Part shown: positions 23,184 to 34,917 of the stretch, piece after piece
Layout: each line of letters opens with the position of its first letter
How positions within the stretch are numbered: the stretch's first letter is position 1
Source of the DNA: a virus
Lineage: Duplodnaviria; Caudoviricetes
Reading direction: 5' to 3' (one strand)
IMG/VR virus record: IMGVR_UViG_3300018495_000013
Location: 62-64,061 of that record
DNA: 64,000 bases
Program-made: the position numbers and the translations under genes
The notes under the pieces: model-generated
The model's input: only the letters and a program-made list of their open reading frames with translations
Told to the model about the DNA's origin: nothing
Database searches by the model: none

Positions 23184-23212
23184 TTGACAGGTGTCGGTTC
23201 TTCGTGTATAAT
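23184..23212 (+). promoter_or_regulatory. Sigma70 promoter of the recombinase operon
   Basis: TTGACA-N17-TATAAT. Confidence 0.85.
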
Positions 23213-23242
23213 GTTATCAAACCCATTAAAAAGGAGAGAGAA

Positions 23243-23992
23243 ATGGCAAGAGTTAAAAGAAAAATCAAACACGCGCTTAAACCAGAACAAGTGTTGGCAC
23301 TATTAAAACCTTTAGAAAATTCTAGTATTGCAACCAATGTTCGTGATTATGCTGCGTTTGTTATTATGTGGCGTTGTGGAGCAAGAGCAAACGAAATATC
23401 AAAGTTAAGAATGAATAATATTGATATTGCCAATAGGACAATTAGAATAGTAGAAAGTAAAAGTGATGATAGAATCATTATACTAGACGATTTTGCTATT
23501 GCAAAACTTGAAGAATGGCTCAAGATTAGACCTAAATATGCAAGCAAGAGAAACCCATTTGTTTTTTGCATCGCTTCTAACCGAAAAGCGAACTTCAATG
23601 AGCATACAAAGAACATAGAAAAAGATTATGCAATGTTGGAGTATGATATTGCTAGAACTTATTGGACTATCAAATTGCATAAATTGTCCGAAAAGACAGG
23701 GGTATTCTTTGATGAAGGAAGTCGCGGACTAAAACCTGCACACGCCCATTGCTTGCGTACTACTTTTTGTACGGACGGACTGCGAGAAGGTTTTAACATT
23801 GTTGAACTACAAAGGCTTGGCGGTTGGAAATCATTGTCTAGCGTTCAATCTTATGCTCACGCATTTACCGATGAATTGGCTTTAAAAGTGTCGCAAAGGA
23901 AAAGCCCTATAACAACTACGGACGAACAGAAACAAAAAGAAATAGCACGCCTGCAAGCCGAGATTGACCGACTTAAAGGGGAAACTAAATAA
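23243..23992 (+). CDS. Tyrosine recombinase (catalytic domain only, Xer/Int-like)
   Basis: RDYAA...CGARANE, K, HCLR, LGGW, catalytic Y in VQSYAH; SD AAGGAG before ATG 23243. Confidence 0.9.
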   Translation: MARVKRKIKHALKPEQVLALLKPLENSSIATNVRDYAAFVIMWRCGARANEISKLRMNNIDIANRTIRIVESKSDDRIIILDDFAIAKLEEWLKIRPKYASKRNPFVFCIASNRKANFNEHTKNIEKDYAMLEYDIARTYWTIKLHKLSEKTGVFFDEGSRGLKPAHAHCLRTTFCTDGLREGFNIVELQRLGGWKSLSSVQSYAHAFTDELALKVSQRKSPITTTDEQKQKEIARLQAEIDRLKGETK

Positions 23993-29654: not shown

Positions 29655-30029
29655 TTAGTTCGCTATCCAATAACAATCTACGGCACTATTAGTGCAATCA
29701 AATATGTCATATATTATGCCATCTATCGAGCAAGTTAAATGACCTTCAATGCGAATAATAATTGTATTATTCGGATAAGAACTAGAGATTTCCCCAACAG
29801 TTTCACTTTGATTACAATATCTTATGGGTAGGTTGAAAACATCTGTTAATAGTTTTTCATAACACCACAAACACAATTTAGGACAACCGTGATGCTTCGC
29901 AACTAATGACAAAAGGTTTGCCGTTGCTGGATACGGAATCTTCAACGCAAGGGAGATTGCTCGTGTAACGCAATCTTCTTCTTCCGTTTGATTGGGGTTT
30001 CTATTGTAATAAGAAAAATTGTCAGTCAT
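29655..30029 (-). CDS. Putative papain-fold (Cys-His-Asp) peptidase
   Basis: DC20VTRAI...GH97LTC..YDIFD. Confidence 0.5.
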   Translation of the reverse strand: MTDNFSYYNRNPNQTEEEDCVTRAISLALKIPYPATANLLSLVAKHHGCPKLCLWCYEKLLTDVFNLPIRYCNQSETVGEISSSYPNNTIIIRIEGHLTCSIDGIIYDIFDCTNSAVDCYWIAN

Positions 30030-30038
30030 AGTTTTAGA

Positions 30039-30788
30039 TTATTCTTTAATGATACATTGATAGTATGCCCAAAGTTTTTGTTCTCCATCGCCCTTGTAAT
30101 CTTTATCCATTAGGAAGTCTTTTGCAAGGTCTAGGTAAAATTCAGGTCTATCTACGCCATACTTTTTAGCAGTAGTGCAATGGTCGGAATACTTCATATT
30201 CATAGCCATACACAAGACTTTATCGCCACCCATTTTATTGGCATCTACGCCCATTTGTTTAGCGATTTGAGAACATTGTTCTTTCGTATAATGTTTGCCC
30301 ATTGTGCCATCATTATTTTCTAGTTTGTGTTCCCAATCTTGTATATCGTGGTCGGTTAATTTGCCAAATTGCATTTCACCGTAATCTCTGCGCATATCAT
30401 AGCCATAATCCCTACGCATATCGTAACCGCTGTCGTAGCCATAATCATAGCCATAGTCATAGTTTTGCATATTATAGTCGCCGTAATCATAATTTTGCAT
30501 ATTATAGTCGCCACCACGCATATCGTATTCATATCTACGCATATCTTGTTGGTTTCTATTCATATCGCCATAATCTCTGCCACCACGACCACCTCGAGAA
30601 CCACGACCACCACCGCGTGCCATATCGCCCATACGCATTTCGTTTGGCATCATTCGGTTCATATCGCCTCTGTCGCCACGCGGTCTGCGAGTAGTAATAT
30701 ATCCACCACGAGAGCCATAAGGATTTCTACCATCGCCTTCTTGCATACCATATTTTGCCATAAGCATATCTTTTACAAATTGGTTCAT
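30039..30788 (-). CDS. RGG/YD-rich low-complexity protein with helical C-terminal domain
   Basis: RGG boxes; GDYNMQNYDY repeated with a 30-nt period (30457-30512). Confidence 0.8.
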   Translation of the reverse strand: MNQFVKDMLMAKYGMQEGDGRNPYGSRGGYITTRRPRGDRGDMNRMMPNEMRMGDMARGGGRGSRGGRGGRDYGDMNRNQQDMRRYEYDMRGGDYNMQNYDYGDYNMQNYDYGYDYGYDSGYDMRRDYGYDMRRDYGEMQFGKLTDHDIQDWEHKLENNDGTMGKHYTKEQCSQIAKQMGVDANKMGGDKVLCMAMNMKYSDHCTTAKKYGVDRPEFYLDLAKDFLMDKDYKGDGEQKLWAYYQCIIKE

Positions 30789-30790
30789 AG

Positions 30791-31234
30791 TTAAAACTCC
30801 TTACTTACATTAAATACCACGCTAGTAAAGGTTGCTCCTACTCCTACATTTTGCAAAGAGATGGTTTGTGCGATAGTAGAAGGATTGTTGAGAACACAAT
30901 CTTTATCCACAAGAATATAATAATCAATAACAAAGGTTCTAAATTCAGTAGTAGCGGTAGTTATGGTTTCAGTTGAAATTGCTCCGTCTACTACTTCGCC
31001 ATTCGCAAGAAGTTGTACGCTAACATCACCTGCAACAGTACCTGTGCCAACAAGAGTAGCAGTAATATGATAAATACCACTATGGTTTAGGGTAACATCT
31101 TGTGTGGTTCTTGAAAAAGCAGTAACCCCACAATTATTTTTCTTGCAATATCTACGATAAGTAGAGCCAAGATTGATAATGCCATCGGTAAGCACAGTTT
31201 GAGTGCCTACATTTTTAGTTCCTAAAAGTAACAT
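30791..31234 (-). CDS. BclA-C/C1q-like beta-sandwich protein
   Basis: TLNHSGIYHITATL..G.V.VQLLANG pattern. Confidence 0.5.
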   Translation of the reverse strand: MLLLGTKNVGTQTVLTDGIINLGSTYRRYCKKNNCGVTAFSRTTQDVTLNHSGIYHITATLVGTGTVAGDVSVQLLANGEVVDGAISTETITTATTEFRTFVIDYYILVDKDCVLNNPSTIAQTISLQNVGVGATFTSVVFNVSKEF

Positions 31235-31259
31235 ATTTTTTTCTCCTTTTAATAAAAGA

Positions 31260-31283
31260 AAGGGTAGGTTTTACCCTACCCTT
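31260..31283 (-). terminator. Hairpin within the cassette
   Basis: AAGGGTAGG/CCTACCCTT with a T-run on the minus strand. Confidence 0.6.
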
Positions 31284-31328
31284 GTAGGATAACTAATCCT
31301 TTTCGCAATAATAGTTATAATATGCTAA

Positions 31329-32006
31329 CTATTGAACATTTACTCCGCAAGCATTGTAGCAACAATTAGGGTTCGGTACTACATAAGCAGGGATGGGGCA
31401 AGTCTTGAGTTCGCTTAACAAGTAAGCACTTTGCTTATCGTTGCTAATTTGAGCCTTTAGACCAGCGTTTTCCGCTTGTAGACCAGCAATCTTTTCGGTA
31501 GTCAAGAAGTCAAGTATTGCACGAGTGTTGTCTTGTCCTGCACGAATAATGTCGCAAGTGTTTCTTTCGTTTGCATACTTCACATCTGCGATTGCAGCCC
31601 TAGTATCACAGCAGCATTGAGCGAGTTGGGTAGATAGAGCGTTGAAGCCTGCTTGGTTTTGGTAGCCAAGAGTACAGATAGCATTGTTTATACCTGCGAA
31701 GCCATTGGTTACGGTTTGGTTGATGCCACCGAAGCCTTGGTTGATAAAGTTTTGCATAGTTGCTTGACCGAGTAGAATGTCGTTGAGGTCGCTCATAATT
31801 TCGCTGTTTGCAAAACCTGCGGAAAGGTCGGCTTGGGTAGCGCAGTTGCCACGGTTGTTTCCACCACCAAAGCCAAAGCCATTACCACCGAACAAAGCAC
31901 CGATTAGTGCCAAACCAATAATCCAGGAAAAATCTCCCCAGCCATTGTAGCCGTTGTTTCCGTTAGTATTAGTTACAACTTGAGGTAATTCACCTTCAAT
32001 ATACAT
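31329..32006 (-). CDS. G/N/F-rich protein with CCC motif and coiled coil
   Basis: SD AAGGAG before ATG 32006; one hydrophobic segment, QLAQCCCDTR. Confidence 0.8.
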   Translation of the reverse strand: MYIEGELPQVVTNTNGNNGYNGWGDFSWIIGLALIGALFGGNGFGFGGGNNRGNCATQADLSAGFANSEIMSDLNDILLGQATMQNFINQGFGGINQTVTNGFAGINNAICTLGYQNQAGFNALSTQLAQCCCDTRAAIADVKYANERNTCDIIRAGQDNTRAILDFLTTEKIAGLQAENAGLKAQISNDKQSAYLLSELKTCPIPAYVVPNPNCCYNACGVNVQ

Positions 32007-32079
32007 AAGTTTAATCTCCTTTAATAATTTATTTATATATACAAGCAAATTCGCGCGCACTTTTGCTTGGAATATATTT

Positions 32080-32322
32080 TTAGTTGTTAAGTATTTGATT
32101 TATAATTTCAATCGTGCTTGCTTCCACACCATTTTGCATAGCCATTTGCATAATAAACTCTTTAGGGTTGCGACCATTAGCCATATTCTTTAATTGGGTA
32201 AGTTGTTGTTGCATTTGAGGGTTTTGTTGCAACATTGCGTTCATAATCATTTGAGGGTTTTTGCCTTGTTTTTTTGCCATAGCAATATATTGTAAAGTTT
32301 GATTTAATTGTGGGTTATTCAT
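32080..32322 (-). CDS. Q/N/M-rich small protein
   Basis: SD-led; GKNPQMIMNAMLQQNPQ. Confidence 0.8.
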   Translation of the reverse strand: MNNPQLNQTLQYIAMAKKQGKNPQMIMNAMLQQNPQMQQQLTQLKNMANGRNPKEFIMQMAMQNGVEASTIEIINQILNN

Positions 32323-32329
32323 AATTCAC

Positions 32330-32452
32330 CTACCTACTAACAATTACTTTTTTAAGAACTTCTATTTCTTTTTGCATTTCCTTGATTTGTTTTTCAAGTT
32401 CCTTTAGTTTCTTGGTACATTTACAAGTGCTATTATTAGTTGTGTTTTCCAT
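32330..32452 (-). CDS. Small coiled-coil protein (40 aa, not in the ORF track)
   Basis: MENTTNNSTCKCTKKLKELEKQIKEMQKEIEVLKKVIVSR, overlap-coupled. Confidence 0.6.
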   Translation of the reverse strand: MENTTNNSTCKCTKKLKELEKQIKEMQKEIEVLKKVIVSR

Positions 32453-32927
32453 TGTTTTGTTTACCCCCTATTTGTTTTTGTAGTGCTTCTATTTTGGAAA
32501 CAAGGTCATTGTATTGTTTGACGCTCACAAAACCGCCTAAATCTTCCTTTTTGGCAAAAATTGAATAATCCATCGTTTCTTTAGGCTCTTGCTTTTCTTC
32601 ATTAGGTTTTACTTCTTTGAAGTATTTAATGTATGATAGCCCATCATTATTGCAAATTTTTTCGTAGTACATATTATTAGACCTATCTATAAAAATGCCT
32701 TTTGCATTAGGGTTCAAGATATATGCCTCAGCTTCCTTCAAAGAGCCGTAGCCTACAAATTGGATAGGCATTTCAAATTGCATAGGTGTTTGTTGCGGTT
32801 GTGCCATTGGTTGTTGTTGTATAGGTTGTTGCCTATTATATTGTTGTCCTTGTCCGTACATATTGCCATAATAAGGTGATTGGTACGAGAAAGGAACATT
32901 GCCGTAGTTTCCATAATTGCCGTTCAT
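32436..32927 (-). CDS. Y/G/N/Q-rich N-terminus protein, first gene of the cassette
   Basis: SD AAGGAG; prion-like N-terminal 50 aa. Confidence 0.8.
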   Translation of the reverse strand: MNGNYGNYGNVPFSYQSPYYGNMYGQGQQYNRQQPIQQQPMAQPQQTPMQFEMPIQFVGYGSLKEAEAYILNPNAKGIFIDRSNNMYYEKICNNDGLSYIKYFKEVKPNEEKQEPKETMDYSIFAKKEDLGGFVSVKQYNDLVSKIEALQKQIGGKQNNGKHN

Positions 32928-32976
32928 AATTCAATCTCCTTTTTGTCGGGTTCTATGATAAAAAATTAGCAAAAAA

Positions 32977-33040
32977 GTCCACGATGTACAATGGACAAAT
33001 CGTGGACATTATTAAAAAAATCGTGGACAAATCGTGGACA
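32977..33040. promoter_or_regulatory. Operator array upstream of the cassette
   Basis: ATCGTGGAC at 32999, 33020 and 33031, inverted at 32977; the 17-mer TGGACAAATCGTGGACA occurs twice. Confidence 0.7.
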
Positions 33041-33051
33041 ATACAAAAAAA

Positions 33052-33075
33052 TAGCGTAGATTTTACTCTACGCTA
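33052..33075 (-). terminator. Terminator after the AgrB-HTH gene
   Basis: TAGCGTAGA-ttttac-TCTACGCTA with a T-run on the minus strand. Confidence 0.75.
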
Positions 33076-33090
33076 CTCTCGTAAGTATGA

Positions 33091-33648
33091 TTATGGGAAT
33101 AATTCCTTTTTCATACGATATTTAATTTTCTTTACGCTCTCCCTATCAACAGGATTGTCTTGTGTTTCACATAACCACAACCAAACATCTTTGGGCTTTT
33201 CTTTATCATAAAAGAATTTAATAGCCATTTCGGTTTTAAGTTCATTGTAGTTATGCAATTTACACAATGATATAAGTTTATCTTTCTCGCTAACAACTGG
33301 GTCAAATAACAAACTCTCCGCATACATTAATAAGGGTATTACTGCTCCTACTAAAACGCTCCATATAACACTTATGTTCTTTGGGATACAACCTACTGCT
33401 AGGAATAACACAAAGGTCATGCTAGAAACCAATATGCACTTTTGTGGTGTTGCAAAATGCTTTATCTTTGGTACAAGAAATCGTGTAGTAAAGAAACCAC
33501 CCAATATAAAGGTGGCTTCTAATAGTTTGCCTATCAATAAGCCAAAAGCAAGTATAATACCTATAATGCTAACATAACCTATTGTGGCAATAATATAGCC
33601 TTGTAGTTTAAGCCTTTGCTTCGGACTTAATTTCTTCAAGTCTTTCAT
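33091..33648 (-). CDS. AgrB-like membrane peptidase fused to a C-terminal HTH
   Basis: About 4 TM helices; E..F....F.T.R56......H64-x6-C71-xxx-S matches AgrB R/H/C spacing; LLMYA at the YAP position; sigma-region-4/LuxR-like tail. Confidence 0.65.
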   Translation of the reverse strand: MKDLKKLSPKQRLKLQGYIIATIGYVSIIGIILAFGLLIGKLLEATFILGGFFTTRFLVPKIKHFATPQKCILVSSMTFVLFLAVGCIPKNISVIWSVLVGAVIPLLMYAESLLFDPVVSEKDKLISLCKLHNYNELKTEMAIKFFYDKEKPKDVWLWLCETQDNPVDRESVKKIKYRMKKELFP

Positions 33649-33802
33649 CGATAGCCTTTAGTTCTTCGTCTATTTCGACATATCTCTTGTCAAGAGCAGT
33701 TATTTGTTCACGATTTTCACGCTTTTCTTTTAATAGTTCAGCCTTTCTCTTTTCAAGTCTTTGTTCTTCACTATGTTGAAACCAAGCGAAATATTTACTC
33801 AT
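33608..33802 (-). CDS. Candidate AgrD-like propeptide (leaderless)
   Basis: SD AAGGGGGT; MSKYFAWF then QHSEEQ and a charged coiled coil. Confidence 0.5.
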   Translation of the reverse strand: MSKYFAWFQHSEEQRLEKRKAELLKEKRENREQITALDKRYVEIDEELKAIDERLEEIKSEAKA

Positions 33803-34394
33803 TGTCTTTAACCCCCTTTTTAGATTTTATTAAGTTTGCGTAGCCGTAGTATAGCAAAGTCATAATAAGCACATCAAATGAATATATCATGCCGATAATG
33901 GAATTATTGTATATCTCTTGTGGAGTAGTTCCTTTTGTAAACATAGATATTACTTGGAACAAAATCAACAATACATTAGCCAATATTATTTTCCAATAGG
34001 ATTTCCAATCTTTCCCAATCAATATTGCAGGTAGTAGAATAACTTGCCATATATCGAATATAATTCCATACTCAAAGCACCATATTTTAATAGCAGTTCC
34101 ACCTAGTACGGTTATTATAACAAGTATCAATTCCCATATTTTATATCTATTTCTTTGTAGAATAGCAAGAGTAAAGAAATATACGGATACAAAACAATAT
34201 AAACCACTCATTATGTAGTCTAACCACAAGTGAGTATCTTTGTATTCGCATACCTTTATAAATGCCTCATTGTTACATATAATTTCAAAAAGGTTACCAC
34301 CGAACATCTTGATAACAAAGCATACTGCTAATGCTACCCAAGAAGCGATGATAACCCTTTTCAAGTATTTTATTTTGTCTATGTTGCAGTTCAT
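33795..34394 (-). CDS. Six-TM membrane protein, candidate peptide receptor or transporter
   Basis: Six hydrophobic segments in 199 aa; overlaps the propeptide start. Confidence 0.6.
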   Translation of the reverse strand: MNCNIDKIKYLKRVIIASWVALAVCFVIKMFGGNLFEIICNNEAFIKVCEYKDTHLWLDYIMSGLYCFVSVYFFTLAILQRNRYKIWELILVIITVLGGTAIKIWCFEYGIIFDIWQVILLPAILIGKDWKSYWKIILANVLLILFQVISMFTKGTTPQEIYNNSIIGMIYSFDVLIMTLLYYGYANLIKSKKGVKDNE

Positions 34395-34425: not shown

Positions 34426-34917
34426 CTAATCCTTATTTACCAATTTGTAGAATAAGTCCGCTTTTGTTTCTTCTTTTTCCGTTGTGTCAAGCAATTTTTC
34501 GGTTTCTTCAGCAACTTTTTTAGCGGTAAGTTTTCCTTGTTTGTATGCAGTATATAGGTTCTTTGCCCAATTTACAAACTTTTCCACAATCTTTCTAGGA
34601 GATTGGCAAAGGAATAGGTATACTCCTTGAGTCATAAATGCCGTAGATACTGCCTTAAATACAATAGTTCCAATAGACATATCTACATTATGTACATACA
34701 TAAATCCAAATGTTATACCTAGTGTTGCAATAAAAGCAGGAACAGCGTATTCGTATTCAAACTTCTTTTCATACTTTTGCTTACGAATGCGTATTATAAT
34801 ATACTTAATTGCACTTACAATAAGTACAACAACAAAACAGAGTATGAACAATGCTATATATAACGCCAAGTCGTTAGCAAAAATAAAACTTACGAATGAT
34901 TGTGCGCTTTCTAACAT
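34426..34917 (-). CDS. Holin-like 3-TM membrane protein
   Basis: Three hydrophobic segments, charged C-terminus, downstream of the tail fibres. Confidence 0.5.
   Translation of the reverse strand: MLESAQSFVSFIFANDLALYIALFILCFVVVLIVSAIKYIIIRIRKQKYEKKFEYEYAVPAFIATLGITFGFMYVHNVDMSIGTIVFKAVSTAFMTQGVYLFLCQSPRKIVEKFVNWAKNLYTAYKQGKLTAKKVAEETEKLLDTTEKEETKADLFYKLVNKD

Follow-up and report, generated by a model that had tools for sequence, protein, structure and literature searches.

An AgrB-type membrane domain fused to a predicted helix-turn-helix domain in a family of gut phage proteins

Introduction

AgrB is a membrane cysteine endopeptidase that processes AgrD in the staphylococcal and clostridial agr systems and, to our knowledge, no form of it other than a stand-alone enzyme making quorum-sensing peptides has been known. 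Here we describe an AgrB-like gene of a virus of the Caudoviricetes (IMG/VR record IMGVR_UViG_3300018495_000013), which lies at positions 33091-33648 on the minus strand of a stretch of 64,000 nucleotides (nt) of that record (positions 62 to 64,061); this whole stretch is called the window, and all coordinates refer to it. The analysis supports an architecture in which an AgrB-type membrane domain with a retained catalytic dyad is fused to a cytoplasmic helix-turn-helix (HTH) domain of the sigma-70 region 4/LuxR type.

The phage protein resembles AgrB in a homologous region covering transmembrane (TM) helices TM1-TM4, in the alignment of a TM2 Glu, an Arg, a His-x6-Cys pair and a Ser, and in the predicted cytoplasmic placement of its active-site loop. 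Unlike AgrB, it carries P-K-x-x-H in place of G-G-x-H with the Arg one residue further from the His, corresponds to positions ~28-133 of the 185-position AgrB profile only, and has the HTH domain where AgrB has its last TM segments. Moreover, no canonical agrD, agrC or agrA lies near the phage gene, which is a phage core gene. The C-terminal domain resembles the HTH domains of the sigma-70 region 4/LuxR-GerE type (those of SigF, SigR, BldN, DosR and KorA) in its predicted fold and in the Pfam matches of its relatives, and differs from them in lacking a sigma region 2 and in being attached to a polytopic membrane domain. In AgrA-type promoters, paired direct repeats lie just upstream of a weak -35 box. 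The element that follows the phage gene is comparable in that it combines phased direct repeats with a good -10 box only; in contrast, AgrA has a LytTR fold, and the phage system is without a phosphorelay and has its repeats embedded in a terminator hairpin.

Two further classes of system invite comparison. Phage-borne agr cassettes have been described in the C. difficile phage phiCDHM1 (agrD/agrB/agrC) and in Brevibacillus phage Davies (gp44-47) (PMC3901668). As in those cassettes, an AgrB-family gene is here found in a phage beside membrane proteins and a small open reading frame (ORF). However, their AgrB is canonical and stand-alone (Davies gp46 has 172 amino acids (aa) and no HTH), and a canonical AgrD with a PVAPKEL tail is encoded downstream of it, in a lysogeny or accessory region; the Davies membrane proteins have no detectable similarity to the 6-TM partner protein described below. 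In ToxR, CadC, TcpP and TfoS, a membrane-tethered DNA-binding domain links membrane or extracellular input to a promoter (PMC5430869, PMC3903286). The phage protein shares with these regulators a putative DNA-binding domain tethered to the membrane, whereas their order of parts is an N-terminal winged HTH, one TM helix and a periplasmic sensor, and that of the phage protein is a four-TM peptidase domain followed by a C-terminal sigma-4-like HTH.

Results

The membrane domain and its AgrB-type residues

The extent of the AgrB-HTH gene rests on its ORF, on a start codon common to most homologues and on 161 homologues alike in length and architecture. In an AlphaFold2 (AF2) model of the 185-aa product, built on 61 homologues, helices TM1-TM4 span residues 9-39, 42-58, 68-85 and 90-115. 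Residues 56-71 form the TM2-TM3 loop in the model, and this loop carries R56, H64 and C71 (codons 33481-33483, 33457-33459 and 33436-33438, minus strand). A sequence-only reading of this locus had placed R56, H64-x6-C71 and a Ser four residues after the Cys between TM helices, and all of these residues are indeed present in the translation at such a position. Lys and Arg residues are unevenly distributed, with six in the N-terminal tail, four in loop 56-71 and one in each of the other two loops, and by the positive-inside rule this distribution puts the N-terminal tail, the His/Cys loop and the C-terminal domain in the predicted cytoplasmic compartment.

Pfam matches, hhalign alignment, residue conservation and the AF2 helices together delimit an N-terminal four-TM AgrB-family domain (aa 1-118; 33295-33648, minus strand). 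The Pfam AgrB profile PF04647 matched residues 21-126 of the window protein (profile positions 28-133) with an E value of 5.7e-5 and 23.0 bits, exactly the gathering cut-off of 23; in the genome search the score was 23.3 bits. When 81 diverse relatives were scanned singly, 55 matched the same profile, with a best E value of 5.9e-10. By these profile scores, membership is borderline for the window protein and solid for the family.

Five canonical AgrBs from Clostridia genomes scored 115-136 bits to PF04647, and all carry R-x-x-x-G-G-x-H-x6-C-x3-S. The His-Cys spacing that the sequence-only reading had equated with that of AgrB is therefore also the spacing of the canonical clostridial enzymes. 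Aligned against these five with hhalign, the phage family gave a probability of 83% and an E value of 8.7e-6, and the alignment, which ends at residue 78, pairs E44, R56, H64, C71 and S75 with the canonical Glu, Arg, the His that follows G-G, Cys and Ser, respectively. The LLMYA segment behind TM4, which the sequence-only reading had likened to the YAP motif of AgrB, falls outside this aligned region.

Conservation of these residues was high at every distance. H64, C71 and P89 are invariant among 106 full-length homologues of 40-99% identity. Among remote representatives, one for each 50%-identity cluster, the His and the Cys are each kept in 130 of 131, the Arg equivalent to R56 in 125 of 130, and Ser or Thr at position 75 in 131 of 131; over the same set, overall identity drops to about 20%. 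Retention of His and Cys amid such low identity is the pattern expected of a working catalytic dyad and, judged from these counts, the peptidase centre is under strong purifying selection. Conservation of the His/Cys pair among homologues had been named as a test of the AgrB assignment, and the remote representatives bear it out.

The domain nevertheless departs from canonical AgrBs at several points. The G-G that precedes the His in all five canonical sequences is replaced by P-K-I/T-x, the Arg-His spacing is longer by one residue, and nothing corresponds to profile positions 134-185, which hold the C-terminal TM segments; residues 119-185 are the soluble HTH instead. Because of these departures, we read the N-terminal domain as a truncated, divergent member of the AgrB superfamily and not as a canonical AgrB. 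Neither PHROGs nor NCBIfam had a family for the AgrB-HTH protein, a sequence-profile search of the PDB gave chance-level matches only (best, PlcR, E 0.06), and Foldseek against the PDB gave no match at E<=0.001. A solved AgrB-like membrane structure did not surface in either of the two fold searches, Foldseek and VIA-align.

The predicted DNA-binding domain

Behind TM4, the AF2 model has four soluble helices (residues 121-131, 136-147, 152-162 and 169-183) with a predicted local distance difference test score of about 90. This C-terminal domain (aa 119-185; 33091-33294, minus strand) was delimited by the AF2 model, by VIA-align superpositions and by Pfam matches in relatives, and we read it as a predicted DNA-binding domain of the sigma-4/LuxR type. 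It superposed on sigma region 4, KorA and DosR with Z scores of 6-6.7 and a root-mean-square deviation (rmsd) of 1.6-2.9 Å over 50-60 residues; for superposition on sigma region 4 domains by themselves, the ranges were Z 5.7-6.7 and 2.0-2.9 Å over 55-63 residues. The individual values were Z 6.7 and 2.0 Å over 55 residues for SigF region 4 (8jzt_A), Z 6.5 and 2.2 Å for KorA (5clv_E), and 1.6 Å for the C-terminal domain of DosR (3c3w_B); further fold matches were SigR, BldN, SigH, SigW and SigA domain 4, and the matched structures include the entries 5fgm and 6dxo. Among the 81 relatives, Pfam assigned Sigma70_r4_2 to four (best E 5.4e-6), Sigma70_r4 to one and GerE to one. The suggestion of the sequence-only reading that the last ~60 aa are soluble and HTH-like is thus upheld by fold, superpositions and the Pfam matches of relatives.

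Over the 106 homologues, the C-terminal domain is the best conserved part of the protein and ends in a basic helix, S-V-K-x-x-K-Y-R-M-K-K; it is joined to the membrane domain by a conserved juxtamembrane linker, Y-x-E-S-L-L-F-D/E-P. Sigma70_r2 had no match in the window protein, in which aa 119-185 are the sole soluble region, or in the 81 relatives, and the AgrB-HTH protein is therefore not a sigma factor. Short homologues of 104-137 aa start at an internal Met and lie on small contigs; they were taken for truncated gene calls and not counted as free HTH domains.

The window carries an unusual allele of this domain. Codon 169 (33142-33144, minus strand) is AGG (Arg) in the window and TGG (Trp) in other samples and in 100 of the 106 homologues; contigs from two other faecal samples have TGG at this codon (33144 T>A), which is the sole difference over 1 kb. 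R169 stands where the predicted recognition helix begins, in place of a Trp that hardly varies among the homologues, and it may be a functional recognition-helix variant or a sample-specific mutation.

Two Cys residues of the domain, both predicted to be cytoplasmic, are also conserved: C129 in 104 of 106 close and 87 of 116 remote homologues, and C160 in 98 of 106. Conceivably, C129 and C160 serve in redox chemistry, metal binding or acyl transfer beside a Cys peptidase.

A three-gene membrane module

The sequence-only reading took the AgrB-HTH protein alone; by gene order and gene fusion, the protein is one part of a three-gene membrane module. Directly upstream, a small partner gene (33608-33802, minus strand) encodes 64 aa, an aromatic N-terminal stub (MSKYFAWFQ) followed by a charged coiled coil, and its last 41 nt are also the first 41 nt of the AgrB-like gene. 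Upstream of it lies a gene for a 199-aa partner membrane protein with six TM helices and no known family (33795-34394, minus strand), assigned by synteny, by fusion to AgrB-HTH and by a confident AF2 model with a predicted TM-score of 0.72. Pfam had no family and the Atlas no name for this 6-TM partner, and fold searching gave nothing convincing (best Z 7.9, to short helical pieces). It contains the conserved motifs F-G-G-N-x-F-E-I, F-Q-x-I-S and Y-S-I-D-V-x-I-M-x-x-L-Y-Y, and a conserved C-x8-C in a predicted non-membrane helix.

The order of genes is conserved: a 2-3 TM protein with a charged tail, the 6-TM protein of about 200 aa, a protein of 43-64 aa, AgrB-HTH, a short intergenic region and a downstream cassette. 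This order was kept in every locus with enough flanking sequence, down to 25% identity. In eight representatives of 349-428 aa (P0208, P0209, P0231, P0232, P0246, P0252, P0254 and P0266 of alignment A6), the whole three-gene unit is collinearly fused into a single polypeptide. The first ~190 residues of the fusions matched the 6-TM family (hhalign probability 99.4%, E 5e-22) and the last ~190 residues the AgrB-HTH family (99.7%, E 1.5e-26), and in several of them the linker between both parts has an aromatic start like that of the small protein. By these alignments, the fusions are a Rosetta-stone link between the window genes at 33795-34394 and 33091-33648. Since the three products are elsewhere a single polypeptide, they most likely act together, as one membrane complex.

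The small protein varies around a common plan, in which a stub of the form M-G/S-x-aromatic-F-x-W/F-F/L-Q leads into D-x-V-A-E-L-K or G-K-P-V-D-K-L and then into a coiled coil; the consensus over 12 loci is M-G-x-F-F-x-W-F-Q-x-D-x-V-A-E-L. Every copy has its own strong AGGAG Shine-Dalgarno sequence, including those of loci L007 and L014, where the small ORF is in frame with the 6-TM protein. Because it presents an aromatic core and then an acidic helix, and is translationally coupled to the AgrB-like gene, the small partner is the obvious candidate substrate. It is not, however, a canonical AgrD, and its equivalent is an internal linker in the fused forms. The identification of the small ORF as a canonical AgrD was rejected: across 12 copies there is no amphipathic leader, no conserved Cys or Ser and, in most, no PxxP.

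A conserved hairpin, repeat and promoter-like element

The intergenic region downstream of the AgrB-HTH gene contains two hairpins. The first is terminator-like (33047-33080, minus strand). The second (32949-33017, minus strand) combines a conserved hairpin and loop with a T-run and a -10-like box, and so has the features of a terminator and of a putative promoter/operator; in gene direction it reads stem GTCCACGAT, loop TTGTCCATTGTAC, stem ATCGTGGAC, T-run and TGCTAATTT. Overlapping it, an array of TGTCCACGAT repeats with 11-bp phasing occupies 32976-33040 (no strand assigned) and comprises three direct copies, one partial copy (in the loop) and one inverted copy (the 3' stem); in gene direction, two TGTCCACGAT units precede the second hairpin element at the same phasing. 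Elsewhere in the window, the ATCGTGGACA motif was found only as single sites with one mismatch outside the intergenic array.

A like element follows the homologous gene in 13 other loci. In the common design, the 5' arm of the hairpin is one repeat unit and the loop carries a second (consensus TTGT-NN-ACAAC), and a T-run and then a -10-like box (TGCTAWAAW or TATAAT) follow at a fixed distance. Compensatory changes were found in eight of ten stem pairs. The covariation score was 0.496 compared to 0.199 for shuffled alignments (0 of 500 reached it), and slid registers gave about 0.1. Furthermore, a covariance model of the element (R1) found one copy in the 64-kb genome, at 60.8 bits, with the next match at 19 bits, and on four loci outside its training set it found one significant copy in three, 10-40 nt past the stop codon. 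Counted back from the -10-like box, the repeat units of the loop and of the 5' arm would fall near -43 and -54 of a putative promoter that has no good -35; such positions are, by the sequence, activator or operator territory.

A group of distant relatives separates the HTH from the membrane domain. In L016, L017 and L018 (2336-2803, 1038-1505 and 435-947 of these loci, respectively), the same HTH sits on a soluble N-terminal domain of about 85 aa without TM helices (I-P-I-S-K-Q ... I-K-I-Y-F-Y-E), for which there is no Pfam family; the gene has the same genomic position and the same element follows it. Because these loci swap the N-terminal domain and keep both other parts, HTH and element appear as a constant pair and the N-terminal domain as an exchangeable input module. 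The constant pair is, in our view, the best available argument that the HTH would act on the element.

The sequence-only reading had proposed a membrane-tethered transcription factor. Its structural part stands, in the form of an AgrB-family membrane domain with the dyad and a cytoplasmic HTH, and a candidate DNA target, the element at 32949-33040, is conserved beside the gene in relatives. The further idea of that reading, that activity may depend on peptide processing or on release of the HTH, stays a conjecture.

The downstream cassette

Beyond the element lies a seven-gene cassette (29655-32927, minus strand) that is the candidate regulated output, as homologous first genes follow the element in relatives. 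It encodes a Q/N/Y-rich protein (phrog_21718), a small coiled coil, an 80-aa protein, a Gly-rich TM protein (phrog_16490), a BclA_C-like protein, a DUF7841 protein and a 124-aa protein (phrog_3754). Genes homologous to the cassette also lie behind the element in the distant relatives L008, L009, L016, L018 and L033. The cassette proteins include low-complexity types rich in Q/N/Y, in G and in RGG/YD. The 124-aa protein (29655-30029) has a D-C-V-T-R ... G-H pattern, which was the basis of an earlier suggestion of a Cys peptidase.

Distribution and genome setting

A word-indexed search returned 161 AgrB-HTH proteins, nearly all of them 179-197 aa long and encoded on metagenome contigs that reach 40-64 kb, and an exhaustive profile search returned 323 clusters at E<=1e-3; in the Atlas, the nearest clusters are mostly Uroviricota. 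One locus was found in IMG/VR and four in the genome collection, all four on contigs of metagenome-assembled genomes (MAGs). Among 300 sampled Clostridia genomes the family matched in one, the MAG used as the sample centre, and a tblastn search with three family members against 50,697 GenBank phage records gave no match. Judged from these loci, the AgrB-HTH gene is a syntenic core gene in a large group of uncultured Clostridia siphophages. Homologues bear the public names 'hypothetical' or 'accessory gene regulator B family protein'. Full-text literature searching found no description of an AgrB-HTH fusion, in keeping with the sequence-only reading, which knew of none; each half of the architecture belongs to known families, and their combination was not found described in the literature searched.

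The source record is a virus genome of 64,061 bp with direct terminal repeats, nearly all of which is covered by the window; G+C content of the window is 35%. Early or replication genes occupy the plus strand from 1.6 to 29.5 kb and include those for an anti-restriction protein, several DNA methyltransferases, an integrase-like recombinase, an SbcC-like protein, an exonuclease and an ERCC4 nuclease. On the minus strand, from 63 down to 29.6 kb, a helicase loader/helicase/primase block is followed by portal, major head protein, tape measure and tail fibres and, past the tail fibres, by a block of small membrane proteins and unknowns. Here, after the tail genes, lies the AgrB-HTH gene, adjoining 2-3 TM holin-like proteins; one of these is a syntenic, putative holin-like protein of 163 aa with 2-3 TM helices and a charged tail (34426-34917, minus strand). 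No endolysin family was recognised among the window ORFs scanned with PHROGs and Pfam.

A Clostridia host is suggested by the strong AGGAG ribosome-binding sites and by relatives that lie on MAG contigs with Clostridia, Eubacteriales and Acutalibacteraceae labels. The window DNA occurs in animal faecal and gut metagenome runs, and no RNA run was listed for it. A short gene of the tyrosine-recombinase/integrase type (262 aa) lies at 23204-23992. Since the AgrB-HTH family is in just one of the 300 sampled Clostridia genomes, stable integration seems uncommon; a role of the 262-aa recombinase in dimer resolution or in a plasmid-prophage state is possible.

Discussion

We propose that the AgrB-HTH protein, anchored in the membrane, regulates the promoter of the downstream cassette and that its AgrB-type active site sets its state, and put the probability of this reading at roughly 0.5. 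The N-terminal 118 aa are a truncated cysteine-peptidase domain of the AgrB family with its Arg/His/Cys/Ser loop predicted to face the cytoplasm, and a cytoplasmic four-helix HTH stands where the C-terminal third of a canonical AgrB would be. The protein would work as one unit with the 6-TM protein and the small aromatic/coiled-coil protein. The HTH would most likely bind the phased TGT-N-AC repeats in and beside the downstream terminator hairpin and, bound there, act as a gate on transcription of the cassette at 32927-29655. The switch would presumably be the peptidase, which would cleave the small partner where its aromatic and acidic parts meet, or else cut within the module. On the sequence evidence, the protein probably controls the promoter just downstream. 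Architecture, homology, conservation, synteny, gene fusions and the cis element are established by the analysis; DNA binding at the element, peptidase activity, its substrate and the direction of regulation are points that we infer.

Several observations weigh against this proposal. Z scores of 6-6.7 are ordinary for a helical domain of ~60 residues and alone indicate only a compatible fold, and the C-terminal domain of the window protein stays below the thresholds of the HTH Pfam models. The R169 allele of the window may have altered DNA binding or none. The repeats keep a nearly constant core against a varying HTH, so that a covariation of recognition-helix and repeat sequences is not demonstrable with the loci in hand. 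The protein that binds the repeats could instead be another phage or host factor. The element itself is not universal: L001/L032, L009 and L015 are without the canonical hairpin, in place of which L001 and L009 carry a pair of TTGTNCC units at 11-bp spacing. Finally, no AgrD-like propeptide with leader, Cys/Ser and PxxP tail adjoins the AgrB-HTH gene.

The absence of a canonical AgrD also bears on an alternative that we consider possible, if doubtful, namely that the module serves the phage as a compact signalling unit of the Agr kind. The small protein encoded upstream would then be a leaderless propeptide whose charged tail is removed by the AgrB-like domain to give a short aromatic peptide, linear or cyclised head-to-tail; the 6-TM protein would export or sense this peptide, and the HTH would report enzyme occupancy to the cassette promoter. 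The conservation, translational coupling and strong translation of the small ORF are in favour of this, as are an aromatic core followed by D-x-V-A-E-L-K or G-K-P-V-D-K-L, which resembles the hydrophobic AgrD core with its V-P-K-E-L tail (Davies gp47), and a Gly or Ser at residue 2 in 12 of 12 copies, compatible with Met removal. However, the small proteins have no Cys or Ser nucleophile in a conserved place, no amphipathic leader and, in most copies, no PxxP; the equivalent segment is an internal linker between membrane domains in the 349-428 aa fusions, which fits a structural element better, and the small ORF is in frame with the 6-TM protein in L007 and L014. Lysis-lysogeny communication would also be without an obvious setting, given a family found in one of 300 sampled Clostridia genomes. 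A bolder form of the same idea, to which we give a slim chance, is a self-contained phage signalling device of a new type, made of 6-TM protein, small protein and AgrB-peptidase/HTH, in which the peptide-processing enzyme is itself the transcription factor, so that the occupancy of the AgrB active site by a leaderless propeptide, or its turnover there, would be read directly at one dedicated promoter without a kinase or response regulator.

Rather unlikely, in our judgement, is a regulated release or sigma mimicry, in which the membrane domain sequesters the sigma region 4-like domain until cleavage by itself or a partner frees it for DNA or RNA polymerase, redirecting host transcription at a late stage of infection. 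Such a system would be akin to pro-sigma-K/SpoIVFB or to anti-sigma regulated proteolysis. One chain does here hold both a protease and a sigma-4-like domain, with a conserved juxtamembrane linker, and free-standing forms of the C-terminal domain of 77-91 aa exist, but these short forms may be truncated gene calls on small contigs. Moreover, AgrB chemistry acts on a separate substrate, no conservation of a cleavage site is tied to the active site, and a tethered HTH can act unreleased, as with ToxR and CadC.

It is improbable that the domain serves to eavesdrop on the host by binding or processing a host AgrD precursor, so that the phage reads the quorum state of its host and sets cassette expression by it. 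Canonical AgrBs were found in five of 61 sampled genomes from the order of one carrier MAG (G002), and phage-borne agr genes are known (PMC3901668); in the other 56 of the 61 genomes, however, nothing matched AgrB, the module always comes with two partner genes of its own, and the half of AgrB that is missing here may be needed for AgrD handling. Similarly improbable is the view that the AgrB-like domain is a catalytically irrelevant membrane anchor or scaffold, or the module part of the lysis machinery and not a transcription factor: its site after the tail genes beside 2-3 TM holin-like proteins and the lack of a recognised endolysin in the PHROGs and Pfam scans would suit it, but His and Cys are kept in 130 of 131 representatives while identity falls to about 20%, the HTH is the most conserved part of the protein, and the phages with a soluble N-terminal domain retain both HTH and DNA element.

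The family thus joins an AgrB catalytic core directly to a putative DNA-binding domain in hundreds of sequence clusters of uncultured gut phages, with unchanging partners and, in most cases, a common DNA element. For structural and mechanistic studies, it provides a minimal AgrB core (TM1-TM4) that occurs in nature. If the peptidase really controls the HTH, membrane proteolysis or peptide processing would here be coupled to transcription in a new and very compact way, and Clostridia phages of a large and unstudied group would have a new regulatory checkpoint.

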